NCBI GenBank assembly: GCA_049675585.1
Contig: JBAUAJ010000055.1
Location: 55,025 to 119,024, forward strand
From: Thermoplasmata archaeon
GTDB taxonomy: Archaea > Thermoplasmatota > Thermoplasmata > Lutacidiplasmatales > UBA184
DNA length: 64,000 nucleotides
Direction of reading: 5' to 3'
The notes under the pieces are model-generated. The model had not been told where the DNA came from and searched no databases. It saw nothing but the letters and a program-made list of their open reading frames with translations. Positions 20,322 to 61,231 of the stretch are shown piece by piece. Position 1 is the stretch's first letter. Each line of letters starts with the position of its first letter. The translations under genes and the position numbers were made by a program.

Positions 20322-20663
20322 TTAGCGGGTCATGTGTTCAATAGCCATTGAACCTACCGCGGAAGTATCCGACGTAAAAGTCCGAAATCTAGTCCAATCA
20401 GGCGCCTTCCGACCGCTGAGCCCGGGTGCGGCCGTGACGGTGCTGGAGAACTCGTGCTGCAGGTCCGCGAGGACGTCAGCCGACGCGACCTTATCGCCAA
20501 AGTCCGCGGATTGGAGCCGGCCGCTGAGACTGTAGATCATCGAGCGCGTTGCCTTGTGGATGGGTGTAAACAAGTCCTCGGTCGCCGTCATTCGGGGGTC
20601 GTCTCGTTCCGCGACCAGATATGGCAGTGGCAGTTGATCCAAACCGGCACTACGGATACTCAA
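20322..20663 (-). CDS. hypothetical protein (uncertain)
   Basis: 113-aa ORF with non-repetitive composition. Its 3' end overlaps an instance of the island palindrome. No family recognised. Confidence 0.2.
   Translation of the reverse strand: MSIRSAGLDQLPLPYLVAERDDPRMTATEDLFTPIHKATRSMIYSLSGRLQSADFGDKVASADVLADLQHEFSSTVTAAPGLSGRKAPDWTRFRTFTSDTSAVGSMAIEHMTR
20336..20353. repeat. island inverted-repeat motif GTTCAAT-agcc-ATTGAAC
   Basis: Perfect 7-bp arms with a 4-nt NNCC spacer. About 310 bp upstream of the sulfatase-like gene and just before the vapBC module. Confidence 0.5.
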
Positions 20664-20725
20664 ACTGGCCGAACCGAGGGATGGGGAGTCTGTCTAAGCA
20701 CCCCCCCAGACGGCGACGGTCCCGG

Positions 20726-20743
20726 GTCCAATGCCCCTTGAAC
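20726..20743. repeat. degenerate motif instance GTCCAAT-gccc-CTTGAAC
   Basis: Imperfect arms. About 90 bp upstream of vapB. Confidence 0.3.
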
Positions 20744-20803
20744 CTCTTTCCTACGGCGTCCGGCTCCGGGAGCAAAGTCCAGCTACCACGAGCGAGCTAA
20801 CCC

Positions 20804-20825
20804 TTATACTGCATGCGCGCATGCA
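20804..20825 (+). promoter_or_regulatory. TATA-like box (TTATACT) plus perfect 16-bp palindrome TGCATGCGCGCATGCA upstream of vapB
   Basis: TATA centre is about 26 nt upstream of ATG 20833. The palindrome occupies -23..-8 and is a candidate antitoxin operator. Confidence 0.45.
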
Positions 20826-20832
20826 TCCCTCG

Positions 20833-21045
20833 ATGAGCAGGGCGGAAACCTCGGTCAGAGTCTCCAGAGACGTGCTCCAGCAGCTGGATCGCCTCAAAGA
20901 AACTTTCCATGTTCGAACCGCGGACGAGACCATTCGTGTGCTGATCCGCGAGCGGAGATCGCGCGCACTGACTCGGATGCTTGGCAGTGGGAAGGGGGTT
21001 GTTACTCCGTTCTCTGAGGAGGACCGTCTTGAGACTCACGATTGA
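20833..21045 (+). CDS. vapB: VapB-type antitoxin (type II TA)
   Basis: Start MSRAETSVRVSRDVLQQLDRLKE... (antitoxin-like) lies 26 nt downstream of a TTATACT TATA-like box. Overlaps the downstream PIN gene. Confidence 0.55.
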   Translation: MSRAETSVRVSRDVLQQLDRLKETFHVRTADETIRVLIRERRSRALTRMLGSGKGVVTPFSEEDRLETHD

Positions 21046-21436
21046 TACGTTTGCTTGGTTGGAACTGATTCGGGGGGGCGCGCCTGGGCGGCGTGTACGC
21101 AATCAACTCGAAGTAGCGGATAGTTGTCTTTGTCCCTCCATAGTCCTCGCCGAGATTGCCTCCAAACTTACGCGGCTCGGCGTGCCTGATCTGGTAATCG
21201 ACGGGCAGTTTCGGGCTATCCGGGAAGCCAGTCAGATTATCCCAATCGACGATGAAATCGCACTCGCGGGTGCGCATGCTCGGGAAGAGTTGCAGATGTC
21301 CGCGCGAGAACAACGAGCTCCTCTGCCGGGGCTCGCCGACGGGCTCATATTGGCGACCGCGAGGCTGACCCGTTCCCGATTATTGACCGGGGACCCCCAC
21401 TTTCGACATTGTCCTGAGACGATCTGGTTGGAGTAG
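21029..21436 (+). CDS. vapC: PIN-domain ribonuclease VapC (toxin)
   Basis: (M)RLTIDTFAWLELI... has acidic PIN residues (D..E..D..D). In-frame TTG start overlaps the vapB 3' end. Confidence 0.65.
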   Translation: MRLTIDTFAWLELIRGGAPGRRVRNQLEVADSCLCPSIVLAEIASKLTRLGVPDLVIDGQFRAIREASQIIPIDDEIALAGAHAREELQMSAREQRAPLPGLADGLILATARLTRSRLLTGDPHFRHCPETIWLE

Positions 21437-21668
21437 CTTGCAAGGAGCGGGCGCGGAGGACGGTCACCTCGACCTGGGTCCAAGAGCCCCAACCCGGGTG
21501 AACGCCGATAGTGTACAAGAGCCAGCGAACAGACGGGTCTCCGCGGAACGTACGGCTCCCCCCTGTGGAAACGCGAATGTCGCATTGCTACGAAATGGGT
21601 CCGAATCGATTTCGGTTGCTATCGTCCGAGTCGTGACGCCCGGTTCGCCGACCGTCTAGAACGCATGT

Positions 21669-22169
21669 GTGTTACCCCAAAGGGGTAATAATCCGAAACA
21701 ACCTGCTTCGGTCGTGGAGCCCGAGCTGGACCCCGGCGTCGTCGCGCTGTTCGGAAGCGAGACGCGAGTCCGTACCCTCGCGGTCCTCGCCAGTGCGCAT
21801 GCCCCCATGACCGCCTACCGGATCGGAAAGGTGGGGGGTATCTCGATGCCGAAGGCCTACCGGGAGGTCGCCCGACTCGAGAAGGCTGGGCTGGTCGGTG
21901 CGCGGAAGGCCGGGTGGATCCTGCTCGACCCGGACGTCCGCGCGCTCCTACGGAAGCGCGTTCGGGTTGCGTGGGCCAACGACTGGCTGGCGGAGCGGGC
22001 TCGCCGAGTGCCGGAGCAGCAGACTCTCTTCGACCGCTTGCAGCATACCGAGCACGCAAAGCCGCCCCGTGGGTGGAAGCCAAGGGAGCCGGAGCGGTTC
22101 CAGCGCTCGGCGTTCAAGGACGAGTTGCTACGCGGGATGGGTCTGAGGTCGTCAGACCATGCTGTCTAA
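21669..22169 (+). CDS. winged-helix protein, putative antitoxin of a reduced AbiE-like module (copy 1)
   Basis: Conserved GSETRVRTLAVLA...PMTAYRIGK...GW.LLD block is shared with 23348..23839 and 53666..54151. Start may be a downstream GTG. Confidence 0.5.
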   Translation: MLPQRGNNPKQPASVVEPELDPGVVALFGSETRVRTLAVLASAHAPMTAYRIGKVGGISMPKAYREVARLEKAGLVGARKAGWILLDPDVRALLRKRVRVAWANDWLAERARRVPEQQTLFDRLQHTEHAKPPRGWKPREPERFQRSAFKDELLRGMGLRSSDHAV

Positions 22170-22764: not shown

Positions 22765-22936
22765 GAGTGCCAACCGATCTCGGTGAATGCGAAGGTTCCG
22801 GGTGAGCCTTCCAGCACGGCAATGGCCTTACGCAAAATGCCCGTTGTGTACTCAGAGGCCATTCAGTTGGCAGATCGGATCCTTTTGTAACGAGGGAATT
22901 GTCTAAGGACCCCTCCTGAGCGTGACGGTGTCGCGG

Positions 22937-22954
22937 GTTCAATGTCCATTGAGC
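22937..22954. repeat. island inverted-repeat motif GTTCAAT-gtcc-ATTGAGC (GGG-flanked)
   Basis: Lies in the 560-bp intergenic region between mini-AbiE module 1 and module 2. Confidence 0.5.
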
Positions 22955-23301
22955 ATTCTAGGCCAGATCTCGGCCCTTCGGCGAATCAGGATCATTTCCG
23001 CTTTACTTGAACCAAGGGTTCTTCATCGGGGTGCAAGTTACGACACCGGTGTATGCGGGAGTGGGTAGGTAAGGGGTAGGTAGCGTAACGGGGGGGCTGC
23101 GTCCTCTGAACCGGGTCGCGGCAGCTCGATTCCCGGAGTATTTTGACTGAATCGGAACTAAACTCCCCGACGACTCCCCTCTCGGCTTCCTCCCGGGGGC
23201 AGGCCGTGTGACCGAAGCGCTTCCGACCGCAAACCTGGATTCACTGCGCCGCGTTGGCGTCTGGCGCCGGGTGTTTGGCTTTCCACCCCTGGCCGTATGA
23301 T

Positions 23302-23320
23302 AGTCCCTTAGAAAGGGACT
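23302..23320 (+). promoter_or_regulatory. perfect inverted repeat AGTCCCTT-aga-AAGGGACT upstream of mini-AbiE module 2
   Basis: 8-bp arms. About 30 bp upstream of the wHTH start at 23348, so a candidate autoregulatory operator. Confidence 0.4.
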
Positions 23321-23347
23321 AATACTCCAGGTGAGGGTACTCCGACG

Positions 23348-24397: not shown

Positions 24398-25397
24398 TCC
24401 CTTCTCTCGCGTTTCGGGACTCCTCGCCTCCCCGAACCCTGAGGTGAACCTCCCAGGGTTTTCCCGCGGACCGTCCCATTTAGGGAATCGACTCCCGCTC
24501 CAATGGGGTGGGTTGTCTCCGTCAGGGCGTCAGCTAGCCACTTCGTGCGCGCCTTCCTTCTTCCCCTCGCATACATGTTGCGAAGGCTGGCTCGAACAAG
24601 ATTCCGGATAAGGACTCCCGGCGACGGGCGTTCTAGCGGCAGCTGGACCGCTGACTTCGTCGTCGTGTAGCCCTTGAGCTCCTTCCGGTGGTCCGCGATG
24701 GTCGGGGGCCGGAAGTACAAATCGACGTGCCGGCTCTGGAGGCGAAGCCACGTGATCATCCCCTTGTGCTCGGAACCTTCGTAGCCATGCCCCGGCATCC
24801 GACAGCCGGTCTCTTCCGTAGGATCCGGTGCAATCCCTCGGATCACGGAACGGACCCCCTTGAGGCGCGGTCTAACGCTCTGCGGGGAGCCGGCAATACA
24901 GGCATCGACTTTCGTGACCTAGGACTGGGGGAAGTCATCACCGCCGCATGGTTCGCCCGGTCAATCCGCTCGATGATTGCCAGACGACGTGGGGGGAGCT
25001 CTTCAAAGAGTGGCTACGCAAGGGCCAGATTCTGTTTCGTTCAGCGGCCTCTCTCCGATCCTGTGCGCGCACAGGAGAAGCCTCCCGAGACGAGCGGGAG
25101 CTGGTTCAACTTGTGGCCGGCCCCGGTGATCTTACCTGCTCGTCGGGCTACTGCTTGCCGCGTTAAGAATGCTCCTATTGGTCGGAGGTCTGGTCGCCGT
25201 CGTCGGGTATGATTCACCCGTCGCCGGCGTCCTAAGCTTTGGAGGCGCTGCGTTGCTCGGATGGGGAGCGTACAATCGTCTTAGGTTTGTCCTGTAACGA
25301 GCGTTTACGCTCCTCAAGCCCGCCAAATCGGCCGATCGCACCATTTTGTCGTGAGGGCTTTGTCCAAGGACCCCGCGGATGCGTGCGGCCGTCCTGG

Positions 25398-25415
25398 GTT
25401 CAGTATCCATTGAAC
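25398..25415. repeat. island inverted-repeat motif GTTCAGT-atcc-ATTGAAC
   Basis: Between module 2 and the PH-like membrane protein gene. Followed by CCACGGAACCCTAGCGG, similar to the flank at 54185. Confidence 0.5.
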
Positions 25416-25539
25416 CCACGGAACCCTAGCGGAATGCGTGCCCTCGCCCTGTGAAAACCCGATGGTCCCCGTCTACGAAATGTGTTTGAATCGTAATCTG
25501 CTCTGAAACCCTGCGCGCGCCTGAGGGGTTCCGCGGACT

Positions 25540-27403: not shown

Positions 27404-27431
27404 TTTTGGTGTTCTTCGAGCCGAAAACTGT

Positions 27432-27449
27432 GTTCAACGGCCATTGTAC
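27432..27449. repeat. island inverted-repeat motif GTTCAAC-ggcc-ATTGTAC
   Basis: Convergent intergenic region between the HEPN gene and hepT. Confidence 0.45.
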
Positions 27450-27562
27450 CCAACACCCGGCTATCGAGGGGGGTCACGACTCACAGACTGGAATTTCCAA
27501 ATCCGCACTCAAGAGGGGATAAACCTCCCGAGAGCGGGGCGACAATCAAAGTCTCATTCGCT

Positions 27563-28359: not shown

Positions 28360-28410
28360 TGGTACTTCGCCGACGTACTTGACTTACCTTGCAGATTGGC
28401 ATTAAAGTAA

Positions 28411-28428
28411 GTTCAACAACAATTGAAC
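28411..28428. repeat. island inverted-repeat motif GTTCAAC-aaca-ATTGAAC
   Basis: Divergent region between mntA and the surface-protein gene. Confidence 0.5.
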
Positions 28429-28527
28429 CCACGGAGCCCTTCAGTAATGATTAAGCCCCTGAGTTCATTCTTCCCCTCGACATATTCCGAGGGTGGGGTG
28501 CCGAGAGAAACGCTGCTCGACATCGGA

Positions 28528-29136: not shown

Positions 29137-29150
29137 AGGTTGAGGCCGAA

Positions 29151-30761: not shown

Positions 30762-30978
30762 TTCGGGCAGTCGATTGTATTCACTGTCAGCGGTTCCTGC
30801 GTGGTCGCCTATCGCCGTCATTGGTCTGGGTCCTCCGGGCCATAACCGATGGAGGGAAAAGGAGGCCTTCGGAACCCTGTTTTGGGCCTAAGGCTCAAAG
30901 GTTTGCTGGTTCGCGAGATTCACTCCGCGACGGCAAGTCCGGCAGGAGGCCGAACGTTGGAAGCAATTCCAGCCACAC

Positions 30979-30996
30979 GCCCAATCAAGATTGAAC
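30979..30996. repeat. degenerate motif instance GCCCAAT-caag-ATTGAAC
   Basis: Just downstream of the vapC (31059) 3' end, between the YciI-like gene and the vapBC module on the minus strand. Confidence 0.3.
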
Positions 30997-31058
30997 CCAG
31001 GGAGGATTCTGGATTGGGCTCGGAGAAAAGTGATGACCTGATTGCCGGCTTGTGATTT

Positions 31059-31734: not shown

Positions 31735-31876
31735 CATCAGAGTTCAATCCCCCCTGGAAGGTGAAGCGAGGCGAGGTATCGTCGATCGGCGCGAGGGGGG
31801 ATCTGCAGCCTTACGGCGCCCTGCGGCTGAAACTGTGTGCAACTGAGATTGAACCTTCCGGGCATCCCTTGGGCGA

Positions 31877-33931
31877 TCAGGGCGGCGGGGGGCTGTGACT
31901 CCCCGGCACACCGGGGTCTTTCCGGCGGCTGAGTACGAGAGCGACACAGATCGCAGCTAGCGCTACCACGACCCCGATCAGCGCGTATTCCAGAGGCGAG
32001 AGCTCGGCGGGATGACTCGAGCTCGCCGTGAACGTTACGGGCTCGGGAGCCGGCGCGATCCCGTCCACGGTCACGCGTCCAGTGACATTTCCAAATCCGG
32101 CCGTGGAGGCCGTGAAGCTGTACGTTCCATTTGGCTCTTCGAAGCTGAGGGACGGTCCGCTCGAACTCACGACGTTTCCGCCGATGTCGACCCACCAGAA
32201 TGCGCCGGTGGGAAGGCCACTGACGGCGAATGTCACGGAGTAGGTTACCGCAGTGTAGGCGAGATCTTCCGTCACCGAGCTTCCGGCGACAAGAACGCTT
32301 CCGGTAGGAGGTTGGGTCGATTGTTTCCAACCCGGGATGCTCGAGATCGAGTAGCTGTACGAACCATTCGGTTCGACCGCGGTTACGGAGGAGCTGCTGC
32401 TACTCAAGAGAGTCCCGTTCAGTGTGACCGCCCATTCGGTTCCGCTCGGGAGTCCTAGTTCCTCGAACGACACGATATAGGTTACACGGGCGAAAGCGAG
32501 CGAAGTCTCGATCACGGGGCCGCCGGCGATCGTGACCTCCCCATGGTACGGGAGACTCGCCTGGTGCCAGCCAGGAATGTCCGCTACCGTGTAGTCGTAG
32601 GTCCCGTTTGTTTCGCTGAAATCGAGAGTGTTAGCCGTGGAGTTTTCCTGAACTCCGTTCACCGTCACCGACCAGGAGGTCCCGGCCGGAAGTCCGGATT
32701 CGCTGAACCGAAGACCGTACGCCGTACCGTTTCCGGCCGGGTTGAAAACCCACGCGTCTCCAAAGTATTGGGCATAGACTTGGCCTGAACCTCCGAAGAG
32801 GAGTTGTTCTCCGTTCCGTTGATCGTCTACGACCGGCGCATTCAGTCGAGGGAGCGGCGCCGGTGTGACGCCCGGATAGATCTGGTGCCAGATTCCACCG
32901 GAGTACGACCAGACCTCGTTGCTCCAGGTCGTGCAGCCCGTGGTTAGATTCTCCTCGCTTTCGTAGTAGTAGGTGCGCCCGGTTTCGTTGTCGTACCAGA
33001 GTGACCCTCGGCCCGCGGAGGGAGCGGGGCTGGTGCCTGCCCTCTCCGACCAGTGCCCGTCCGCGAACATCCAGACGGCGCCGTACTCGAGCCCACAACT
33101 GAGTTGGTTCAGGTCGATCCCGCCCGTCAGCAGAACGTAGCCATCCGCCGCGTCGTACACCATCTGGTCGAGACGGTACGCCGCGGGAGGCGGGGCTCCC
33201 GCACTAGCGGTGATATTCGTCCAAACCCCCGCGTGGTAGGTCCAGGTGTCGTTGTAGAACGTATCCGGAACACCCTCTCCCGGGGGAATGTTTCCGCTGC
33301 GACCGCCGAAGAGCAGGACCTCGCCCGCCGCCGCGTCATAGACTAAGCCGAATCCATCTCGGGGGGACGGCGCGTGCGACGCAGAGAGGTTTTTCCATCC
33401 GCTCTGGTTGTAGACCCAGGTGTCATTGAACTCCTGAGTGTTGTTTCGCCCGCCGAACATCAACAGGTAGTGGTCGGCCGCATCCCACACCATGCTCCCA
33501 GAGACCCGCGCGGTCGGTCCTGTTCCCGCAGAAAGCTGCGTCCAGGAGCCTTGGCTGTACTGCCACATGTCCCGATACTCGTAGTTGCCGCCGAAACCGA
33601 AGTAGCCACCCCAAAGTAGAATGGATTGAGACGGTGGGTAGTAGGCCTCGTACTGAAACGCTCGAGGCGAAGGGCCGACACCCGCTGTTCCGGTGACGTT
33701 CGTCCAGGTTCCGTTCACCGTCGCTGGATGCGCTTGGCTAGTGCCGAGCTCCGGCGATCCGACCTGCTGGGCGGGCAGGGGGCCGGGGCGCGCAGGCACG
33801 ATCGCCGAATTCGCTTCGGTGTGAACTTGCAGGAGACCGGGTGAAGTGAGGACGAATAGCAGGATCGCGATGAGCGGGATCGTAGTCCACGAGGACGCGC
33901 CCGAACGACCGCGAGCCGCGCGCGAAATCAT
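31877..33931 (-). CDS. secreted Kelch-repeat beta-propeller protein with three thermopsin-like GLPxGTxW repeats and C-terminal TM anchor
   Basis: Signal MISRAARGRSGASSWTTIPLIAILLFVLTSPG. Multiple Kelch blades (WGGY, LFGG, YxxW). Three repeats Y.V.F.E.GLP.GT.W.V..NG...SS.....F.EPNGTYSY. C-terminus LEYALIGVVVALAAICVALVLSRRKD. Confidence 0.65.
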   Translation of the reverse strand: MISRAARGRSGASSWTTIPLIAILLFVLTSPGLLQVHTEANSAIVPARPGPLPAQQVGSPELGTSQAHPATVNGTWTNVTGTAGVGPSPRAFQYEAYYPPSQSILLWGGYFGFGGNYEYRDMWQYSQGSWTQLSAGTGPTARVSGSMVWDAADHYLLMFGGRNNTQEFNDTWVYNQSGWKNLSASHAPSPRDGFGLVYDAAAGEVLLFGGRSGNIPPGEGVPDTFYNDTWTYHAGVWTNITASAGAPPPAAYRLDQMVYDAADGYVLLTGGIDLNQLSCGLEYGAVWMFADGHWSERAGTSPAPSAGRGSLWYDNETGRTYYYESEENLTTGCTTWSNEVWSYSGGIWHQIYPGVTPAPLPRLNAPVVDDQRNGEQLLFGGSGQVYAQYFGDAWVFNPAGNGTAYGLRFSESGLPAGTSWSVTVNGVQENSTANTLDFSETNGTYDYTVADIPGWHQASLPYHGEVTIAGGPVIETSLAFARVTYIVSFEELGLPSGTEWAVTLNGTLLSSSSSSVTAVEPNGSYSYSISSIPGWKQSTQPPTGSVLVAGSSVTEDLAYTAVTYSVTFAVSGLPTGAFWWVDIGGNVVSSSGPSLSFEEPNGTYSFTASTAGFGNVTGRVTVDGIAPAPEPVTFTASSSHPAELSPLEYALIGVVVALAAICVALVLSRRKDPGVPGSHSPPPP

Positions 33932-34090
33932 TTTCTCCCCCTTCGCCAAAAGCTCAACGCCGAGTGCATTCGCCGTCGGGTGATAAGCGTCGTGCAAAAC
34001 CGTCGTGAGATACGGTGGTCGAGAAGAAAGCGCCGATCCTGCGTTCTTCGAAGTTCCTCTCGCCCCGCTCTTCCGACTTCCTATCTCAGG

Positions 34091-34108
34091 GCTCAATCAG
34101 GATTGAAC
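34091..34108. repeat. island inverted-repeat motif GCTCAAT-cagg-ATTGAAC
   Basis: In the upstream region of the Kelch surface-protein gene. Confidence 0.45.
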
Positions 34109-34214
34109 CCTTTGCGACTTGTACTCCGGTTGTCCGGTCGCCCGAAACGTTGAGCGAGAGCCTCGCAGAACTAGCCTCCACTAAGTCTCGATCAGGATGG
34201 GTCGGAGCAAAGGG

Positions 34215-35070: not shown

Positions 35071-35213
35071 TCCTACTCCCATCGAGCGAACTCCGATCCG
35101 GGCTCGCAAGGAACCTCGGGAAGGTTACATCGTCTGAGAAGATAACGCCGGACTCGATGAGATTGGTCGACAATCATACTGAAGGCTGGAAAACCGAAAT
35201 GGCAGAACTATGT

Positions 35214-35231
35214 GTCCAACTGACATTGAAC
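35214..35231. repeat. motif instance GTCCAAC-tgac-ATTGAAC
   Basis: About 125 bp upstream of the AbrB-type vapB. Same tgac spacer as the instance at 36060 on the other side of the module. Confidence 0.4.
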
Positions 35232-35305
35232 CCGGAAGGTCCCCACCGCACCTCACCGGGGCCGATTGCGGCGGCGCAAAGTCCCAGATCAGCCGTCATT
35301 CCACT

Positions 35306-35977: not shown

Positions 35978-36059
35978 CCCCCGGAATCCGCGTACTGGCG
36001 GAAGTCTGGGGGGACTCGGCGACCGTGGTAGGATAAACCGCCGAATCGGCTCTGACTCA

Positions 36060-36077
36060 GTTAAATTGACATTGTAC
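36060..36077. repeat. degenerate motif instance GTTAAAT-tgac-ATTGTAC
   Basis: About 85 bp downstream of vapC (35977). Direct-orientation partner of the 35214 instance. Confidence 0.3.
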
Positions 36078-36221
36078 CCATCGGGGCGAGGGAAGGCGCC
36101 CCGGCGCCGCGCCTTGGATTTACCCCTGGCGAGTATTTGTGCAATCCTGGATAATCGATAATGCACTCCGACAGCTATTCAAGGAACGTGGAATGGGTCG
36201 ACTCGAACCGGGAGGTCCTCC

Positions 36222-38547: not shown

Positions 38548-38811
38548 TACTCGAATTGGGGTTCTTTAACCTAGGCACCAATCTCGCCGCAACATCAGTC
38601 CCGATGCACCGATAGTCGCGCGACGGTTAGCCGGCTAGATGCCCGTATCTCGGGTCGTGGACATCGCCGCCAATCTCGAATTGTAGCCCCCCCCTCCGAC
38701 CTCGGAGAACGGTCGGCTGATAGGAGGTAGGTCCGATTTCGGACGTGGGCGCAATGGGTATTGCACCCCGGCCTCCGGAGCCCCGCCACTGGCTCCCGTG
38801 GGGGGCCCTGC

Positions 38812-42954: not shown

Positions 42955-43102
42955 CGTTGTTACCTCAGCCTTTCCCTCTCGGGACTCTGCCTAGTTGGCA
43001 GGTCGATTTGAACCTGCCTACTCGGATGTTTCTGTTGCCGCGGTGGGAATCTCAACTCCACGACCGCGTACCGTTGCACGTTGGGACGTCTGCTCTTAGT
43101 GG

Positions 43103-43120
43103 GTTCAACCCAGTTTGAAC
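43103..43120. repeat. motif instance GTTCAAC-ccag-TTTGAAC
   Basis: Intergenic between the VOC gene and the small membrane protein gene. Confidence 0.4.
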
Positions 43121-43189
43121 ACAATCGGACCGAGCCGACCTCGGTCGTTCCGGACGCCCCCGAGGTCCCGACGTAAGGCGCCTTCCCCG

Positions 43190-45397: not shown

Positions 45398-45728
45398 ACG
45401 GAATCCAGCTCGAACCTCCCGATAAGTCTCGCGGCGGCCCAGGCACTACTGGACTCCCGCCCCGACCTCCCCAAGGCTTCGAAGTGGGTCCGTCGAGAGC
45501 GCGACCGGATCTGGTTTCAGTAGAGTTTGAACCGGGCGACTCCAGGACCCTGTGTCCCTGCGGAGCCACGGACTCGGCCCTCGGCGGTGTGCCCACCACC
45601 GTGTCACCGCGGCCACACTATCGCTCACAGGCTCCGTTCAGAAGAGCGAACCCTATCCCGCTCGCAGGAACGAAGGCTTTGGAAAAAAAAGTGAACGCAC
45701 TCGTCGGAATCCGTTCCCATCTCGTCAA

Positions 45729-48700: not shown

Positions 48701-48830
48701 CAGGGCCTCCGCCGCCTTCAAGCCTTCGGAATTTCGAGTCTGCGCCTCGAGTGCGTGATACGCCTTCCTCGAACGGCGGCGACCCTGATTTTGTTCGTTT
48801 CGACGACCGCTGCGATTCTCCTGGGTTCAA
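45729..48830 (-). CDS. giant (about 1000 aa) cell-surface protein with tandem IPT/TIG-like Ig-fold repeats and a second series of about 90-aa repeats
   Basis: N-terminal hydrophobic anchor/signal (LAVAPAVVAGVVIAVEALAVVGG). At least 5 repeats P..G..GD.VTVSG.GF.......V....L....C......C.F. Later repeats T..P.SGP.GT.V.L.A.GL.P...Y..E.D.. Many sequons. TTG/GTG start uncertain. Confidence 0.65.
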   Translation of the reverse strand: MNPGESQRSSKRTKSGSPPFEEGVSRTRGADSKFRRLEGGGGPAPKVVRRAGRCRSIRRSRLAVAPAVVAGVVIAVEALAVVGGLAALGIIHFGGAGNPASPSLNVTPTSGPVGTFVVVSGSGFSASAGLESLIFDSVAITVCRSGSLTTDSLGAFSCSFLVPLGTSGTTVKATDLQGHTASASFRVTSTSPSLALTPSTGVAGDTVSVTGSGFVPSDSSVSIAGAILSIPLVCSLVVGGITGVCDFVVGSAAPGPYVVTGIGTLGGVLDTGAATFTLTSPSITASPGTGISGDTITVGGRGFSLSDVSVSVDSPVLPAPMACALTAGTITGPCAFVAELIVPGPYTITAIGNVVGGAGDTATTLFVLTEPTLSLAPNAGVVGDSVTVSGYNFSVTDTSVTITGDVLGTIHCPVSDGVISTGCRFVVASVENGSYEITAKGNVVGGPGDTTSTSFFVREPTITLFPAEGVVGDIVTISGSGFSAADSSLGVSGAIVQDLVPCELLDGKVTGGCTFEVGSAPHFGPYTITAVGSVVGGEGDTARTNFTLGAGNVSLSPTSGPVNSSITISANGLIPSTSYTLNFTSTATFLVYTERTFTTDVNGNFTGKFPLTGVPLQPTDVRYIVGVYGSQGFVASAGIFTVTSPNVTITPTSGPVGTGVTLQATGLRPTSLYPVAFDTTKGVVDFSFVWALPTDAHGNYSGTMNVPSDIPAGTYYVDLQFSNGTYLVTASEQFTVTTAYAEIYPSSGPSGTDVYLLASGLLPNTMYSVEVDPVRGVESASYGFTLFMSDPNGSYEGNFTAPFGDPAGKYFVDLFDAADNFSYAATATNQFTLTAPSLEISLDSGLPSLSGPPNTMVFLRATGLVPRTEYALELDTAPGVWYSSGPVVDRLTSDINGSFFGTFNVSSNTSEGTYYVDLFDSAANNSYAANATTPFEVTTPIGMISPTSGPNDTIVNLSVTGLAPGVGYVVYLDFTQGDGYHGLYATEFTADDNGSVSGLAFFGPDAPGSYYVDIFEGDSAGYILTAGQFTDSA

Positions 48831-48842
48831 TACAAGTTGAGC
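48825..48842. repeat. island inverted-repeat motif GTTCAAT-acaa-GTTGAGC
   Basis: Overlaps the annotated TTG start / promoter region of the giant surface protein and lies downstream of abiEii. Confidence 0.5.
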
Positions 48843-48942
48843 GTAACGAACGCATCGGATCTCCGTGGTACTCCCTCCCTCTGGATGGGTGAATTTCTCG
48901 GGGGGCCGACGCCCCGGCCCCGAAATCGTCCCGACCGCACGT

Positions 48943-50666: not shown

Positions 50667-50841
50667 GAGAACGACATGTGTTCAGTATACCATATAGTTA
50701 CTGATTCGGTAACAGTGACGTATTGCGACCACTCCCCGGAGTATCGTCGGTCGACTCACCTCGTGTCGGACGGCCGGCGTACCGTGAAACCCTCCGTCGC
50801 GGAGGCGAGGCCGCATCGCGTCCGCCTCTCGGGTGTTCTGG

Positions 50842-50859
50842 GTTCAATGGAAATTGAGC
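50842..50859. repeat. island inverted-repeat motif GTTCAAT-ggaa-ATTGAGC (GGG-flanked)
   Basis: Between the fic 3' end and the abiEi start. Together with the 48825 instance it brackets the AbiE module. Confidence 0.5.
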
Positions 50860-50912
50860 ACACCACTCCGTGAATTGCGCGGCTCGACGACTCTCGCTTC
50901 GGACGCGAGTCC

Positions 50913-53042: not shown

Positions 53043-53058
53043 TTCTCTACTCGCGAAG

Positions 53059-53076
53059 GTTCAACGGGGATTGAAC
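53059..53076. repeat. island inverted-repeat motif GTTCAAC-gggg-ATTGAAC
   Basis: Convergent region between the YoaK gene and mini-AbiE module 3. Confidence 0.5.
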
Positions 53077-53102
53077 CTCCGGGCAGCCCTCGCCCCAGAG
53101 AA

Positions 53103-54151: not shown

Positions 54152-54173
54152 TAATGGTGAAACACACTACTAT

Positions 54174-54191
54174 GCGCAACGACGATCGAAC
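54174..54191. repeat. motif instance GCGCAAC-gacg-ATCGAAC
   Basis: 23-40 bp upstream of the module-3 wHTH start, just beyond an AT-rich TATA-like segment. Confidence 0.35.
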
Positions 54192-54331
54192 CTAGCGGTT
54201 ACTGGGATCAAGCCGTCAGGCACCCCGGAATTCTGCAATAAACGGTTCGACCGATCACCAGACGGCGTTCCGTAAGATCCCGTGGGGGACGGATCGGAGA
54301 CGCCTAGCTGCCTGTGGTGACTTTGCGCCCT

Positions 54332-55724: not shown

Positions 55725-55742
55725 TAAATCATACATAATGAA
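55725..55742 (+). promoter_or_regulatory. AT-rich TATA-like box (ATACATAAT) upstream of GTG start at 55764
   Basis: Only AT-rich patch in the region, about 28 nt from the start codon. Confidence 0.4.
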
Positions 55743-55763
55743 CGGAATCCAGGGGGTGAGGAA

Positions 55764-56006: not shown

Positions 56007-56119
56007 CGCTCGCGACCTCCGAGTCACCCGCGACGCGCTTCCTCGGTGTATCCCCAGTTCTCGAGGAGATACGGCGACCCGAGAAGCGGACGTTGGGTGC
56101 ACAGAACCTCAGAGCCGGT

Positions 56120-56137
56120 GTGCAACGGCGATTGAAC
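56120..56137. repeat. motif instance GTGCAAC-ggcg-ATTGAAC
   Basis: About 90 bp upstream of vapB at 56226. Confidence 0.4.
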
Positions 56138-56225
56138 CGATATTCGATGTATCGTACCGAGTTGACCCCACCTCATCGTGCTTGGCCGGAGAGACTTTAA
56201 TAAGTGTGTTGATATCAACACGTGT

Positions 56226-56859: not shown

Positions 56860-57012
56860 ATCGGGTTCCGCCTACCCGTGGGCTCATGAGTTACTGGATC
56901 CGCTACGAGCCCGCACGTCGACGAATCTCAAGTCAGCGACCCACGTCCTTTCCAAGCGCCTCGAACTCGAGCCATAGGTGGATGTATTTCCATGAAATAG
57001 AGTCCGCAGCTC

Positions 57013-57369: not shown

Positions 57370-57390
57370 CGATCGGCCGTTCCACGGTAG

Positions 57391-57408
57391 GCACAATACC
57401 AGTTGAGC
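57391..57408. repeat. motif instance GCACAAT-acca-GTTGAGC
   Basis: About 90 bp upstream of the YVTN protein gene. Confidence 0.4.
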
Positions 57409-57494
57409 CCAGCCGCTGGGGTCCGCTTGAGCTCGGTGCCGCTCGTACCGGCAATCTACTTTACCTGAGTTAGATGGGGTAGGCTGAGGCGCGA

Positions 57495-58691
57495 ATGTCC
57501 TACAAGATTTCCGGGTTCGACTCTCGAAACAACCGGATTCGGTCTCGGCGCATCGGGAGCTTCGCGTTGGCTGTGCTCACCGGGCTCCTCCTCCTGTGCC
57601 CTTGGATCGGAGGGTTCTCGCTCGCCCACCCCGCCACTCTTGGGGCGACCCCTTTACTCCGCTCGGACTCGGGGAGTACCAACGTACCCGTGGGGACCGG
57701 CCCCGAGGGCATGGCGTATGATGCTGAGCTCGGAGAGATCTTCGTCACGAATTCCTATTCTAACAACGTCAGCGTGATCTCGGATCTCACCAACACCGTG
57801 ATCGCGACGATTCCGGTCGGGATGCAGCCACAGGACGCTGCCTACGACGACGGCCTCGGCGAAATTTTCGTTTCGAACTACCTGTCGGGCAATGTCAGTG
57901 TGATATCGGATGCGACCAACGCCGTCGTGTCGAGCATTCCCGCCGACGGCTACCCCCTCGGATTGGCCTACGATGGATCTATCGGAGCAGTCTTCGTCGC
58001 CACGGTCGAGGAGTCAGGTACCGGAAACCTCAGTGTGATTTCCCATGCGCTCGACACGGTTGTGGAATTGATCCCCGTCGGCTTTGACCCGTACGGCGTG
58101 GCGTTCGACAGCGGCAGGGGAGAGATCTTTGTCACTAACTCCGGTTCGAGCAATGTCAGTGTCATCTCCGACTCCACGCTGAGCGTGGTCGCCACCATCC
58201 CCACCAACACGACACCTACCGGCATCGTGTACGACGCCGGGAAGGGCGAGCTGTTCGTCACGAGCTTCATTAGCGGCATTATGAATGTGATTTCGGACGC
58301 CACCAACACGGTGGTCTCGACGTTCAATGTTACCGGGGGTCCGCAGCGGCCCTCGTACGACCCGGCGACCGGCGAGGTGTTCCTTCCGAACTTCGACCAC
58401 CACAACGTGACCGTGATATCCGACTCGACCAACCGGCCGGTGGGGACGCTCGCTGCCAACGCCGCCCCGCTAGGTTCCGTCTACGACAGCGGAAAGAAGG
58501 AGCTCTTCGTCTCGAACGGGGCCGCCAACAACGTGATCGTGATACCCATCGCGAGTCCGCCGCCCAACGGAGCCAGCGGAGGTCTGCCTGGTTGGACGGG
58601 GGAGCTCGTCCTCTCCGCGATCATCGTGTCCGTAGTGGTGGCCGGTATCGCAGTTCTGCTTAGAATACGCGCGACGCGCCGGCCCCCATGA
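57495..58691 (+). CDS. secreted YVTN-family beta-propeller repeat protein with C-terminal PGW-TM-basic anchor
   Basis: Signal peptide, eight YVTN repeats (G.EIFVTNS.S.NVSVISD.TN.VV.TIPVG..P.G.AYD). C-terminus GGLPGWTGELVLSAIIVSVVVAGIAVLLRIRATRR resembles PGF-CTERM-type sorting tails. Confidence 0.7.
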   Translation: MSYKISGFDSRNNRIRSRRIGSFALAVLTGLLLLCPWIGGFSLAHPATLGATPLLRSDSGSTNVPVGTGPEGMAYDAELGEIFVTNSYSNNVSVISDLTNTVIATIPVGMQPQDAAYDDGLGEIFVSNYLSGNVSVISDATNAVVSSIPADGYPLGLAYDGSIGAVFVATVEESGTGNLSVISHALDTVVELIPVGFDPYGVAFDSGRGEIFVTNSGSSNVSVISDSTLSVVATIPTNTTPTGIVYDAGKGELFVTSFISGIMNVISDATNTVVSTFNVTGGPQRPSYDPATGEVFLPNFDHHNVTVISDSTNRPVGTLAANAAPLGSVYDSGKKELFVSNGAANNVIVIPIASPPPNGASGGLPGWTGELVLSAIIVSVVVAGIAVLLRIRATRRPP

Positions 58692-58878
58692 ACAGCGCCC
58701 GCCGGGCCCCCGCCCGGTGCCTCCGGATGAACCGGACAGGGCTTGGAAGTTCACCCGGAACCTTCCCTGAAAGTGTTCCGGCTGGCTAGACCGTACCGAC
58801 AGACCTGCGCAACGACTCTCCCGGCGTGCGTCCCCTATTAATACTGTTATCGATTTCTCGATATCGGTAAATCGACTC

Positions 58879-59280
58879 ATGTGGGGGATGCGAAAGAAGC
58901 GGGGGCTTCGCAACTGGGTACTCATGATCATCAGCCGTTCTCCCCGAAACGGCGTCGAGATTATCGCGGACATGGAAGTGATGACCCACGGCTGGTGGCG
59001 GCCGTCGCCCGGTTCGGTCTACCCCCTGCTCGAAGAGATGGTCAAGGAAGGGTCCATCAAGAAGCGAGAGGACAGCCGCTACGAACTCGCCCAGCCGTCC
59101 GACGCGATCTGGTCGTGGCACCCCCCGTCGAGCCCCCGCACTCCGGCAGATGTTCTTCGGGAGATCTCGGGTCTCACCGCTTATCTCGAGGACATCGCTC
59201 GTTCCGACCCGAGCGCGCTCTCTACTATCCTGACGGAAGTGGATCCGGTCGCCGACCGGCTTCGCCGTCTCAAGAACTAG
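58879..59280 (+). CDS. PadR-family transcriptional regulator
   Basis: wHTH with HGWWRPSPGSVYPLLEEMVKEGSIKKRE (PadR pattern P.HGYEI...SPGTLYPLLKRLE.EGLI). Confidence 0.65.
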   Translation: MWGMRKKRGLRNWVLMIISRSPRNGVEIIADMEVMTHGWWRPSPGSVYPLLEEMVKEGSIKKREDSRYELAQPSDAIWSWHPPSSPRTPADVLREISGLTAYLEDIARSDPSALSTILTEVDPVADRLRRLKN

Positions 59281-59290
59281 GAACGAAACC

Positions 59291-60310
59291 ATGGAACAGA
59301 AGGGCAGCATCGTCGCGCAGAATCTGGTGAAGGTCTTCAACGGCAAGGTCCGCGCCGTGGATGACGTCAGCTTCCAGGTCGGACCCGGCGAAGTTTTTGG
59401 ATTCCTCGGCCCCAACGGTGCCGGAAAGACGACAACCGTCGCCATGCTCTCGGCTGGGCTCAAGCCGACGCAGGGCCGCGGTTTCGTCGACGGCCTCGAG
59501 GTGGGCCTCCATCCCGAGGAGGTCAAGCGTCACATCGGAGTCATCTTCCAAGAGTCGACCGCGGACGGGGATCTGACGGGCCGGGAGAATCTCGAGATCG
59601 CCGCCGGAACGTACGGTATCTCTTCCTCGGAAGGGAAGCGGCGTGCGGTCGCGTTGATCGACCAGATGAAGCTCAGCGACGCGGCGGACCGATACGCGAA
59701 GACCTACTCCGGGGGCATGCGCCGACGCCTCGAGCTCGCGGTGGGGCTGGTCCACCAGCCCCGAGTCATCTTCCTGGACGAGCCCACTCTAGGGCTCGAT
59801 CCGCAGGGACGCGCCGGCTTCTGGGAGTTCATCCAGAAGCTGCGTCAGGACCACGGTATGACGGTGTTCGTGACGACGCACTATCTCGACGAGGCGGACG
59901 GGATGTGCGATCGCATCGCCATCATCGATCACGGAAAGATCGTCGCCAGCGGGACTCCGAACCAGCTGAAAGATCGCCTGGGCGGAGATGTAGTGACGCT
60001 CAAGACCGGCTCGGGGGCGGGAGATATCGCCCACGTCCTGGAGGCACTTCCCGGCGTTACCTCGGTCCAGCATTCGGACGGGCAGTATCGGGTCAAGTGC
60101 TCCAGCGGCGAGACGTTCGTACCCGAAGCCGTTCAAGCGGCGACGAAGGCGGGAGCCGGGATCACCGGGGTGACCGTGAAGCGCCCCAGTCTCGATGAAG
60201 TGTTCCTCGAATTCACGGGGCGCGAGTTCCGCGAGGACGAAGGACCGACCGCGACGGATCGAGCCGTGATGCTGAACCGGATCCAAGGGTCCCTGGGAGG
60301 TCGGCGCTAA
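59291..60310 (+). CDS. ABC transporter ATP-binding protein (ABC-2/DrrA-like)
   Basis: GFLGPNGAGKTTT, YSGGMRRRLELAV, IFLDEPTLGLDP. Confidence 0.85.
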   Translation: MEQKGSIVAQNLVKVFNGKVRAVDDVSFQVGPGEVFGFLGPNGAGKTTTVAMLSAGLKPTQGRGFVDGLEVGLHPEEVKRHIGVIFQESTADGDLTGRENLEIAAGTYGISSSEGKRRAVALIDQMKLSDAADRYAKTYSGGMRRRLELAVGLVHQPRVIFLDEPTLGLDPQGRAGFWEFIQKLRQDHGMTVFVTTHYLDEADGMCDRIAIIDHGKIVASGTPNQLKDRLGGDVVTLKTGSGAGDIAHVLEALPGVTSVQHSDGQYRVKCSSGETFVPEAVQAATKAGAGITGVTVKRPSLDEVFLEFTGREFREDEGPTATDRAVMLNRIQGSLGGRR

Positions 60311-61149
60311 TGTTGCGGGAACTGGCCGCCCTGACCCGGCGGGAGTACCTGAAGATCCTGCGGAACCCGCAGGCCGTCTTCACTGCGCTGACCCTTCCGC
60401 TGCTGTACCTGCTGCTGTTCGGACAAGGCTTCGGCTTCCAGCCGATCGCCACCTACCCGGGAGAGACGCACGCCCAGGCACTGGCGTACTGGTTCCGGGG
60501 TGCGCCGAGCTACTACTCGTACTTCACTGCGGGAATGGTCGGCTTCGTCGCCGTGACCGCGACGCTGTTCATCGGGGCGAACGTGATCTTCGACAAGCTG
60601 TTCGGCATCTTCAAGCGCACCCGGGGTACCCCCGCTCCATCCGCCGCAGTGTTCGGTTCCCGGTTGATAGCCGGTGCAACGCAACCGATCGCGTATGCGT
60701 TCCTCGTCCTTGGCCTGGCGCTCGCCTTCGCCCACATTCCCGGACTCACCGGGCTGACCGTTCCTTCCGCTCCCAGCCCCCTCGGCGTGGCGGAGATCGT
60801 CCTGGCGATCTTCCTTCTGTCGGGAATGTTTGCGACACTGTTCCTCACGATGGGGATTCTGATCGATGTGCCGCAGATGTACTTCGCGGCCGTCAATGTG
60901 CTGAACCTGCCGGTGCTTCTCACTTCGGACGCGCTCTACCCGTGGGGGACGATGCCGAGCTGGCTCAAGTCCATCTCCCAGTACAATCCGATTTCTCTCG
61001 CGGTTAACGTCATCCGGGAGAATCTGTTCGGCGCGTCGGCGTACCCGTACCCCCCCGAGATCTACCTGCTCGGCCTGTTCGCTTGGGCAGCGGTGTTGGT
61101 CGGGATTGCGATCTTCCTCGTCCGCCGAGCCCTCCGACCTCAGGACTGA
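60310..61149 (+). CDS. ABC-2 type transporter permease
   Basis: 279 aa with six TM helices. Start overlaps the ATPase stop. Confidence 0.65.
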   Translation: MLRELAALTRREYLKILRNPQAVFTALTLPLLYLLLFGQGFGFQPIATYPGETHAQALAYWFRGAPSYYSYFTAGMVGFVAVTATLFIGANVIFDKLFGIFKRTRGTPAPSAAVFGSRLIAGATQPIAYAFLVLGLALAFAHIPGLTGLTVPSAPSPLGVAEIVLAIFLLSGMFATLFLTMGILIDVPQMYFAAVNVLNLPVLLTSDALYPWGTMPSWLKSISQYNPISLAVNVIRENLFGASAYPYPPEIYLLGLFAWAAVLVGIAIFLVRRALRPQD

Positions 61150-61213
61150 AGGGAGCCCGACCTCCCTTACGCGAGACCAACCCTTTCCCACCTTAGATCA
61201 CACCGCGAGGTCG

Positions 61214-61231
61214 GCACAATGCTCATTGTAC
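61214..61231. repeat. motif instance GCACAAT-gctc-ATTGTAC
   Basis: Between the ABC-2 permease end and the tandem-repeat protein gene. Confidence 0.4.

Follow-up and report, generated by a model that had tools for sequence, protein, structure and literature searches.

A short inverted repeat recurs between the genes of an accessory array of defence, toxin–antitoxin (TA) and surface-protein genes in an uncultured high-GC Thermoplasmata archaeon, and we tentatively read its copies as insertion or recombination joints that may be recognised by a dimeric trans-acting protein, working in a manner comparable to integrons or pdif modules. The array is a member of neither of these families, and we found no description of a cassette-like arrangement of this sort in archaea in the literature. 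The window referred to below is the whole 64,000-nucleotide stretch of DNA that was analysed.

A 24-bp dyad in the accessory-gene array

The original prediction described a recurrent intergenic palindrome absent from the first 20 kb of the window, and this observation is real. Exact matches to GTTCAAYN4ATTGARC occur at six positions in the window (seven strand-matches) against 0.00 expected, while allowing up to two mismatches gives 36 strand-matches, or about 20 sites, against 0.70 expected. The sole match in the first 20 kb is a two-mismatch copy inside a gene at 2031, which is at chance level. Alignment of the sites widens the motif, which becomes the core of a 24-bp dyad, TGGGTTCAAT-N4-ATTGAACCCA, with the consensus ccTGgGTtCAATggc.ATTGAACCcA and nearly symmetric 10-4-10 arms. 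The GGG/CCC flanks noticed earlier belong to this dyad, and only the first five sites in a row have NNCC spacers; the flanks of the dyads themselves are not conserved. A position weight matrix trained on the aligned sites and scored over the whole window gives the dyads 20–34 bits; the runner-up, at 45512 and likewise intergenic, reaches 12.4 bits, a separation that is partly circular because the matrix was built from those same sites.

The window contains 20 strong copies and one weak copy, listed here with the other features; the dyads and the array are given without strand.

20333–61234: whole array, GC about 0.60; modules of one to five genes with dyads between them
20333–20356: dyad TGTGTTCAAT-AGCC-ATTGAACCTA, 33.8 bits, opening the array; located 306 nt from the start of the sulfatase gene, in a divergent gap
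20668–20722, + strand: conserved extension of about 55–65 nt, copy 1, GAGGG..TTGTCTAAGGACCCC..GACGG.GTCCCGG, immediately left of a dyad
20723–20746: dyad with weaker arms, preceded by the conserved extension of about 65 nt
22877–22933, + strand: conserved extension, copy 2, left of a dyad
22934–22957: dyad, 172 nt past the NTase stop of wHTH/NTase pair 1; extension of about 65 nt precedes
25338–25394, + strand: conserved extension, copy 3, left of a dyad
25395–25418: dyad following wHTH/NTase pair 2; extension of about 65 nt precedes
27429–27452: dyad separating the convergent HEPN (+) and HepT (−) genes
28408–28431: dyad 49 nt upstream of the MNT start of the MNT-HepT operon (− strand)
30976–30999: dyad with weak left and perfect right arm, 60 nt past the PIN (vapC-2) stop
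31834–31857: dyad with the vapB-2 start on one side and the stop of the Kelch protein on the other
34088–34111: dyad at the 5' end of the Kelch surface-protein gene
35211–35234: dyad, spacer TGAC, left junction of the MazE-like/PIN pair (vapBC-3)
36057–36080: dyad, same TGAC spacer as at 35211, right junction of vapBC-3
38746–38769: dyad with arms GCGCAAT/ATTGCAC, 45 nt past the stop of a 977-aa beta-propeller protein
43100–43123: dyad between a glyoxalase-family gene and a 178-aa ORF
45512–45535: weak candidate dyad, 12.4 bits, in the 331-nt gap 45398–45728
48822–48845: dyad 100 nt past the AbiEii stop, at the 5' end of a 1033-aa surface protein
50839–50862: dyad, 53 nt from the Fic stop and 175 nt from the AbiEi start
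53056–53079: dyad filling most of a 60-nt convergent gap between DUF1275 (+) and the pair-3 NTase (−)
54171–54194: dyad between the pair-3 wHTH and an M29/NicX-like peptidase
56117–56140: dyad upstream of vapBC-4
57388–57411: dyad 21 nt past a SnoaL-like stop, upstream of an NHL beta-propeller gene
61211–61234: dyad 64 nt past the stop of a PadR-ABC-ABC2 operon

A further copy lies 3.9 kb beyond the window end, and the array runs on to at least window-equivalent position 67909. Two good sites, at 31837 and 38749, had been overlooked; the first is the full vapBC-2 site, so the half-site proposed for that module at 31743 is superfluous. The earlier list of perfect copies needs one exchange: 25398 is imperfect (GTTCAGT), and 34091 is perfect on the minus strand instead.

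The centres of the half-sites TTCAAT and ATTGAA are 10 bp apart, and the spacer between them is free. Arm-to-arm pairing is 76.7% compared with 74.5% in shuffles, and either arm is conserved by itself; we therefore read the element as a dyad in DNA and not as a hairpin. We found no selected hairpin and no fold longer than the dyad at the sites, and an Rfam search gave no match.

The genes between the dyads comprise three wHTH/DUF6036-NTase pairs, MNT/HEPN, HepT/MNT, four PIN pairs, AbiEi/AbiEii, Fic, two VOC, YCII, GNAT, SnoaL, DUF1275, an M29 peptidase, two ABC transporters and Kelch, NHL and TIG surface proteins. Genes point in both directions, and it is common for a module to contain two to five genes with their own promoters. 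Bracketing of TA and defence modules, as first proposed, does occur, but the description is too narrow, as peptidase, transporter, surface-protein, DinB and aquaporin genes are flanked as well, and homologous TA modules (AbiE and vapBC) are also found elsewhere with no flanking dyads.

Distribution in core and accessory DNA

The dyad is restricted to accessory DNA, with a GC content of 0.60 in the dyad-bearing stretch compared with 0.67 in core DNA. None of the 15 gaps of at least 30 nt in the first 20 kb of the window has a dyad, nor do the 2.4 kb to the left of the window or 2 × 21 kb of core DNA (GC 0.67) from the two closest relatives, in which several dyad-free gaps are 75–200 nt long; together these dyad-free regions make up about 64 kb of core sequence from this genome and those relatives. 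More distant relatives and viral contigs also have none. The dyad or a variant with TGCAA arms punctuates accessory-gene arrays with unrelated cargo in seven other Thermoplasmata contigs. These include L065, with six sites in 8 kb (Fic, DinB, membrane proteins, helicase, Vsr), and L241, with ten sites in 12.5 kb (DpnII restriction–modification, HNH, DinB, NHL protein, aquaporin); the dyad also occurs in L216, L223, L258 and L238/L260, while L191 and L194 carry the TGCAA variant. Both arms shift together between lineages, TTCAA in some and TGCAA in others. In L241 there are dyad doublets 30–42 nt apart and a weak site that separates the M gene of one restriction–modification system from its R gene.

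Position of the sites relative to genes

All 20 strong sites in the window are intergenic, as are the weak copy and the one beyond the window end, although the sites at 20726, 34091 and 48825 overlap by up to 6 nt a called ORF whose 5' end is uncertain. With an intergenic share of about 18% in the 20–64 kb stretch, the probability that all 20 would fall there by chance is about 1e-15 by our own arithmetic. About half of the intergenic gaps across the 48-kb accessory stretch contain a dyad, and within arrays overall 39 of 91 gaps do, with similar occupancy whatever the gap type (9/18 convergent, 7/20 divergent, 23/53 tandem). Distances to start codons range from about 15 to about 390 nt, and we found no TATA/BRE-like or AT-rich box at a fixed offset from the sites. 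The similar occupancy and the lack of a fixed promoter offset indicate that the dyad is not tied to transcription. Sites in tandem gaps are nearer the stop than the start in 16 of 24 cases (median 74 and 131 nt), and gaps with a site are longer than those without (220 compared with 136 nt). No jump in composition occurs at the sites, and site polarity shows no significant organisation along the array.

Relatedness of neighbouring sites

Most sites differ in spacer, yet neighbouring spacers resemble each other (p=0.001 for the window with L065; p=0.056 in independent arrays). Identical spacers are found in 3 of 48 adjacent pairs compared with 0.19 expected (P about 9e-4; within-array permutation 0.01), and each such pair encloses a single module, namely vapBC-3, MNT-HepT in L191 and the helicase in L065. 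The comparison of related genomes suggested previously yielded a single case of presence and absence, in a 7.5-kb region over which L194 and L190 share 79% identity. Sites at 12435 and 13468 in L194 exactly enclose an additional 294-aa gene, and at the orthologous offset L190 has a single decayed dyad, so that the "empty" site of this one case is degenerate.

The gap-type rates, the lack of a fixed promoter offset, the unconserved flanks, the spacers and the bounded extra gene fit the proposed boundary role better than a regulatory one. The enrichment in intergenic DNA, the restriction to accessory arrays and the recurrence of the dyad between unrelated cargo in other contigs also speak for joints. 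As joints of a modular array, the dyads would be double-stranded recognition sites of a dimeric enzyme that binds DNA and whose gene lies elsewhere in the genome, for which a site-specific recombinase or a target-specific transposase is a candidate. A module with one site, or with a pair of ends, would enter the 4-bp centre of an existing dyad and regenerate the dyad on either side with the same spacer; the array would then gain one site per joint whatever the gene direction inside the modules, and later recombination between sites could delete or invert modules. We infer this enzyme, the positions at which it would cut, and the continued activity of the sites, which would otherwise be scars. 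The sites of known tyrosine recombinases have a 6–8 bp overlap, longer than the 4-bp spacer of the dyad, and since spacers are unlike at most sites, conventional strand exchange between them would be blocked. Counting against joints, neither the 68 kb surrounding the array nor the remaining array fragments showed a recombinase or transposase. The single presence/absence case with its degenerate "empty" site, the p value of 0.056 in replication, the AbiE and vapBC homologues without sites, the even composition and the unorganised polarity also weigh against it, as does the weak site within the L241 restriction–modification system, a place where a cassette joint makes little sense.

Alternative explanations

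Bacterial REP, BIME and REPIN sequences are short, species-specific extragenic imperfect palindromes, mostly near gene 3' ends and sometimes in doublets; REPs are dispersed genome-wide and recognised as hairpins, and RAYT-type transposases provide the model for their copying in trans. It is possible, though unlikely, that the dyads are selfish or neutral palindromes of this kind, copied by a trans-acting enzyme into tolerant gaps and accumulating in accessory regions. They are likewise short, stand-alone, lineage-specific and extragenic with unconserved flanks; their arms drift in concert, they lie nearer stops and in longer gaps, the L241 doublets resemble REPIN pairs, and TA modules exist both with and without them. 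Their absence from all 15 core gaps of the window and from 42 kb of the relatives' core, despite gaps of 75–200 nt, argues against this, as does the near absence of stem covariation. Random dispersal predicts neither related neighbouring spacers nor identical ones around single modules, and a whole gene bounded by two sites in L194 does not fit it; no Y1 transposase was seen in the genome fragments available.

We consider it improbable that the dyads serve a single protein as operators or nucleation sites from which it controls or coats accessory and foreign genes; such a protein would be a global regulator or a sequence-specific silencer, for instance one of the many wHTH proteins. The 10-bp half-site geometry with a free spacer is that read by dimeric helix-turn-helix proteins, the arms are conserved independently and change between lineages as if co-evolving with a protein, and the islands are rich in wHTH proteins (TrmB-like, AbiEi, PadR, HxlR). 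Control by one island-wide regulator, as also proposed originally, is nevertheless disfavoured, since half of the convergent gaps have a site, including the 60-nt gap between two stop codons, start distances vary widely with no promoter-like signal at a fixed offset, and the upstream stop tends to be nearer to a site than the downstream start is. Moreover, no DNA-binding family is common to all arrays, the promoters of two of the three wHTH/NTase pairs have no nearby site, and the relatedness of neighbouring spacers is left unexplained.

RNA hairpins acting as bidirectional terminators or mRNA 3'-end stabilisers are very improbable: sites are often 12–110 nt past a stop codon and perfect copies could form a 7–9-bp stem with a 4-nt loop, but archaeal intrinsic termination needs oligo-T and none of the 20 window sites has a T5 or A5 tract within 40 nt, seven of 20 divergent gaps have a site, many copies carry uncompensated stem mismatches with pairing barely above shuffled controls, and Rfam has no match.

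Comparison with known mobile systems

MICs and MITE-like elements have IS-type terminal inverted repeats around passenger genes and are moved in trans. Viewed as an element, a module of the array starts with ATTGAACCCA and ends with TGGGTTCAAT, and in three cases a 4-nt direct repeat flanks it, giving the pattern of terminal repeats plus target duplication. Unlike such elements, both arms are present at every joint, even beside non-array DNA, neither a matching IS nor a transposase was found, and insertion would have to hit the centre of an existing dyad every time.

The pdif sites of Acinetobacter plasmids and chromosomes are 28 bp long (11-6-11) with distinct XerC and XerD arms and alternating orientation; host XerC/D act on them, the modules shuffle between replicons and the spacers vary (PMC13141974, PMC12907356, PMC7399989). 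The array described here likewise consists of discrete accessory modules, TA modules included, bounded by short double-stranded dyads with variable spacers, and the pdif recombinase is encoded elsewhere, as proposed for the dyads. The differences are the nearly symmetric 10-4-10 structure and the archaeal host. The archaeal Xer system has a single XerA that acts at a single-copy dif site (PMC2958812, PMC8371274).

Integron attC sites are 55–140 nt long, and integron arrays, including clusters of attC sites without an integrase (CALINs), are found in Bacteria and Archaea (PMC9668308). The likeness lies in short gene modules with one imperfect-palindromic site per joint and in an integrase that need not adjoin the array. 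The array is nevertheless not an integron: the dyads are 24 bp, with no long single-strand fold or extrahelical bases of an attC hairpin, their order GTT...AAC is the reverse of the attC order AAC...GTT (R''...R'), gene orientation is mixed in modules that are often multigenic with their own promoters, and no IntI was seen within 68 kb. The cargo (TA pairs, restriction–modification, GNAT acetyltransferases, small enzymes of the VOC, DinB and SnoaL types, tautomerase, cupin, and secreted proteins with signal peptides) matches that of integron cassettes (PMC9668308), which we count in favour of joints.

Sequence and location of the dyad

The original prediction of a recurrent palindrome, GTTCAAYN4ATTGARC, is borne out by exact matches at six positions, where 0 are expected. 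Allowing up to two mismatches gives 36 strand-matches, or about 20 sites, compared with 0.7 expected from dinucleotide-preserving shuffles. When the sites are aligned with their flanks, this pattern proves to be the core of a 24-bp dyad, TGGGTTCAAT-N4-ATTGAACCCA (TGGGTTCAATGGCCATTGAACCCA in probe form), with an uninformative spacer and a right arm conserved slightly better than the left. With a matrix trained on these same sites, which makes the separation partly circular (the shuffle and expectation tests of chance are not), the sites score 20–34 bits and the next best position in the 64 kb, at 45512 and also intergenic, scores 12.4 bits. No position in the first 20 kb of the window reaches 10 bits in the matrix scan. 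The weaker position is as follows, and it may be a decaying joint:

45512-45535: degenerate dyad scoring 12.4 bits, TGGTTTCAGTAGAGTTTGAACCGG, located in a gap of 331 nt that separates an ABC-2 permease from a 1033-aa surface protein

According to a rough gene call based on GC3 and refined with Pfam, all sites lie between genes, as had been stated; the intergenic share of the 20–64 kb stretch is about 18%. The earlier list of sites had missed those at 31837 and 38749, and the copy at 25398, which had been called perfect, is not. An additional strong site lies on the same contig 3.9 kb past the window end. A literature search found no description of the motif.

The GC content of the dyad-bearing stretch is approximately 0.60, compared with 0.63–0.68 in the left flank and 0.67 in the core of the two nearest relatives (kinase 88–89% identical), and because of this contrast we place the dyads in a compositionally distinct accessory region. 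The block at 12000-20000, containing glycosyltransferase, epimerase and sulfatase genes, has a GC content of 0.54 and no dyad. It differs between the window and L002 (assemblies with an identical kinase protein), and also from the closest relatives (L187–L189), and is therefore a second, dyad-free variable region. The flank encodes an archaeal-type signal peptidase, and a haloarchaeal origin was rejected because the proteome is not acidic. The left edge of the window is formed by VIT1-MFS genes, and in the closest relative these genes have a NicX/M29-like peptidase gene immediately to their left (L187/L188 1-652). The only peptidase copy seen in the source genome (54332-55474) is inside the dyad array, 50 kb away. 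This placement suggests a rearrangement between core and array.

Occurrence in other genomes

The dyad is not confined to this contig, and extends to several uncultured Thermoplasmata lineages. Among the matches listed from a genome-collection scan almost all were single chance matches in unrelated bacteria, besides one 8-kb piece of a different Thermoplasmata MAG (L065), where six dyads separate genes for Fic, DinB, two small membrane proteins, a wHTH pair, a helicase and Vsr. A scan of metagenomes, run to completion, gave 81 stretches, including six contigs of GC 0.60–0.63 with arrays; most of the single-match stretches are low in GC, as expected of chance matches to an AT-rich pattern. One Thermoplasmata contig, L241, has ten sites in 12.5 kb, among genes for DpnII restriction-modification, HNH, DinB, an NHL beta-propeller protein and an aquaporin. 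It also contains dyad doublets 30–42 nt apart with no gene between them (1983/2024, 7116/7158 and 12125/12155), and in the window the 390 nt from dyad 20333 to dyad 20723 contain no convincing gene. Such doublets could be empty joints or REPIN-like pairs.

Loci of close relatives of the window AbiEii carry a variant dyad with TGCAA arms, TAGGTGCAAG-N4-ATTGCACCCA, whose left arm is systematically degenerate. These contexts comprise one variant array (L191, six copies), one partial array (L194, three to four copies) and two loci without sites (L190 and L277). In L190 and L194 the AbiE module adjoins an aldo-keto reductase gene, but in L277 a 3.4-kb segment with a tyrosine integrase (2342-5232) lies between the two; this is an ordinary integrase-borne insertion in a lineage without the dyad, and was set aside as unrelated to it. 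The M29-like peptidase loci of more distant Thermoplasmata (63–68% identical) have neither the dyad nor another recurrent palindrome.

A viral or plasmid link was rejected: viral contigs gave 58 single matches to a 15.5-base version of the pattern, close to a rough chance estimate, and 0 to a 17-base version. The TGCAA-type pattern RGGTGCAAKN4RTTGCACCY was found in 119 viral-contig stretches (loci L283–L362), nearly all with a single site, compared with a rough chance estimate of about 65. The origin of many of these in similar sample series suggests a conserved site of one phage family that is unrelated to the arrays.

Genes between the sites

Each module between sites contains 1–5 genes. The cargo and associated features are listed below.

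Cargo and associated features of the dyad array
Array module: three TrmB-like wHTH and DUF6036-type nucleotidyltransferase pairs
Array module: AbiEi-like-MNT fusion with HEPN
Array module: HepT/MNT
Array modules: PIN pairs
Array module: AbiEi/AbiEii
Array cargo: Fic
Array cargo: two VOC/glyoxalase proteins; YCII
Array cargo: double GNAT; SnoaL-like protein; DUF1275
Array cargo: M29/NicX-like peptidase
Array cargo: two ABC transporters, one with PadR
Array cargo: several Kelch/NHL/TIG surface proteins
Window 62378-63937 and L062:13589-15829: VirD4/TraG/TraD-like coupling ATPase, then a 746-aa protein without family match
20668-20722, 22877-22933, 25338-25394: conserved left extension of the dyad, about 55–65 nt, GAGGG..TTGTCTAAGGACCCC..GACGG.GTCCCGG

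Independent arrays have in common only beta-propeller surface proteins, HepT, VapB, AbiEii, Fic, DinB and the M29/NicX-like peptidase, and no DNA-binding or recombinase family recurs among them. The coupling ATPase and the 746-aa protein, located between dyad 61211 and that at window-equivalent 67909, may be the remnant of a conjugative or plasmid-derived element. Two overlapping ORFs of about 300 codons lie on opposite strands at 61283-62344; the minus-strand translation is rich in R, S, P, V and L, does not look protein-like and has no family match (0.9-kb stretch). The 299-aa ORF at 61283-62182 was rejected as a candidate recombinase because its sequence looks non-coding.

The left extensions belong to three consecutive dyads, with no other copy in the window or any fetched locus. 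They are 73–77% identical to each other, while the adjoining NTase genes are just 32–37% identical as proteins, and they are able to form a small GGGG/CCCC hairpin. Tandem repeats of about 126 nt (42 aa) occur inside the NHL, YNCE and Kelch beta-propeller surface-protein genes (57708-58453, 39839-41319 and 33120-33490), and two of the beta-propeller genes share an 85% inverted match between arms 40196-40236 and 57741-57781.

Dyads as possible module joints

We consider it plausible, if somewhat short of probable, that the dyads are the joints of modules in an accessory array built by recombination or transposition. A more tentative proposal is that a Thermoplasmata clade has its own gene-cassette system, distinct from integrons, in which an enzyme supplied in trans would insert, excise and invert modules at a double-stranded dyad of 24 bp (10-4-10), so building long site-punctuated chromosomal arrays; the modules would be defence, TA, detoxification and surface-protein genes. 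To our knowledge, the assembly and reshuffling of defence and TA islands in archaea are largely uncharacterised. A dyad at nearly every module joint would allow mobile modules of uncultured archaea to be delimited by sequence and provide a bait for the enzyme or binding protein, and the arrays would possibly be a third independent case of accessory arrays on repeated recombination sites, after integron attC and Acinetobacter pdif.

Site density is about one per 2 kb in arrays and zero in core DNA, a restriction to arrays that is based on about 64 kb of core sequence, which in the closest relatives stops short of their islands. Sites occupy 39 of the 91 gaps within arrays compared with 0/15 in the first 20 kb of the window, and the core DNA of L001, L187, L188 and L189 has none. 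This distribution also bears on the possibility, which we think unlikely, that the dyads are REP-like repeats. As short, extragenic, species-specific imperfect palindromes they resemble REP and REPIN sequences, but in the core DNA covered they do not show the dispersal at high copy number through intergenic regions that is typical of such repeats. REP hairpins are maintained by stem covariation and have a cognate RAYT gene. The dyad does not look like a selected hairpin: its arms pair in 76.7% of cells compared with 74.5% in column shuffles (57 sites), and the single covarying arm pair largely reflects the TTCAA/TGCAA lineage difference.

The reading of dyads as joints also draws on their spacers. 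Those of neighbouring sites are more alike than permuted ones (p=0.001, window and L065), with p=0.056 on replication in the later-found arrays. Three of 48 adjacent pairs have identical spacers (0.19 expected). No array contains further identical pairs, and every one of the three encloses a single module: TGAC flanks vapBC-3, a MazE-like/PIN pair, CCTG flanks MNT-HepT in L191, and AGGA flanks the helicase in L065. Identical flanking spacers would be the exact outcome of conservative insertion at the centre of an existing dyad, by either a recombinase or, equally well, a transposase with a 4-bp staggered cut. The AbiE loci L190 and L194 are 79% identical over 7.5 kb, ending 65 nt before the first L194 dyad. 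An extra 294-aa gene lies exactly between the L194 dyads 12435 and 13468 and is absent in L190 (one presence/absence case). At the corresponding offset L190 has one decayed dyad, which is identical at 14/24 positions and has lost the ATTG core. At 50–180 nt inside the sites the homology of the AbiE module stops, in flanks too diverged to read.

Other observations count against joints. No enzyme was found in the DNA examined. A look for a recombinase gene just outside the window had been advised; called ORFs of window 20–64 kb and 4.5 kb beyond gave no Pfam match to Phage_integrase or another recombinase, and the 68 kb covered shows no sign of an integrase, a transposase or another recombinase. 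Known tyrosine-recombinase sites have overlap regions longer than 4 bp, and the spacer here is shorter than these. Because most spacers differ, sites picked at random would recombine inefficiently except by the single-strand exchange that has been proposed for pdif and attC. In L241 a weak site separates the M gene of one system from its R gene. There is no composition jump at sites, and organisation or clustering of site polarity along the array is not significant. In L190, L194, L277 and on the left side of L223, homologous AbiE and vapBC modules lack flanking dyads; the dyad therefore characterises arrays and not TA modules.

We find it more doubtful still that a regulator or silencer of accessory genes uses the dyads as binding sites. 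The half-site centres in TTCAAT-N4-ATTGAA are one helical turn (10 bp) apart, as an operator would have them. Together with the independent conservation of each arm, this spacing suggests that a dimeric protein reads the dyad as double-stranded DNA. However, the dyad is not positioned like an operator. Occupancy is alike in convergent (9/18) and tandem (23/53) gaps, site 53056-53079 takes up most of the 60 nt that separate two stop codons, and site-to-start distances range from about 15 to about 390 nt, with no AT-rich box at a fixed offset and no conserved column within 90 nt on either side (top flank information 0.07 bit). In tandem gaps the site is nearer the upstream stop in 16 of 24, with medians of 74 nt to the stop and 131 nt to the start. 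Even as operators or REP-like repeats, the dyads would be the first family of that kind reported from the lineage, and a practical marker of flexible genome regions.

It is highly improbable that the dyads function as RNA hairpins, and they are not terminators: the oligo-T characteristic of archaeal intrinsic terminators is lacking, with a T5/A5 tract within 40 nt at 0/20 window sites, and 7/20 divergent gaps carry a site. Fragments of att derived from a tRNA or T-arm, and known RNA families, were rejected as there is no tRNA and no Rfam match.

Comparison with integrons and pdif modules

Read as a set of module joints, the array would work like those of integrons, CALINs or pdif modules, yet its features place it in neither family. 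attC sites are imperfect palindromes of 55–140 nt, R''(RYYYAAC)-L''...L'-R'(GTTRRRY), whose single strands fold with extrahelical bases. In contrast, the sites here are 24 bp, with the order GTT...AAC, and have C/G in both core heptamers where attC needs R/Y. A long attC-like fold was rejected, with just a 7–9-bp stem and no common longer hairpin in 108 nt per site on both strands. Integrons have an IntI tyrosine integrase and attI at one array end, both absent in CALINs, and most of their cassettes consist of one promoterless ORF and share a common orientation, whereas the modules here have mixed orientation and 1–5 genes, including autoregulated TA operons. The cargo of TA, R-M, acetyltransferases, small enzymes and signal-peptide proteins is nevertheless that of typical cassettes (PMC9668308). 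The integron-like cassette boundaries of the original prediction fit the cargo but not the site structure, the lack of IntI within the DNA examined or the cassette orientation. Canonical integrons in archaeal MAGs were first reported in 2022, in a paper whose main text makes no mention of Thermoplasmata (PMC9668308).

The dif and pdif sites are 28 bp, with two 11-bp arms and a 6-bp centre, while the dyad has 10-bp arms and a free 4-bp spacer. Typical pdif sites are similar to the dif of the host chromosome and serve as substrates of its Xer recombinase, and their modules come and go as units with the sites at their edges. Archaeal dif has been reported as single-copy (PMC2958812, PMC8371274). 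The bases adjoining the spacer (Y, R) are moderately conserved, so that a 9-6-9 reading of the dyad is possible, which is still shorter than pdif.
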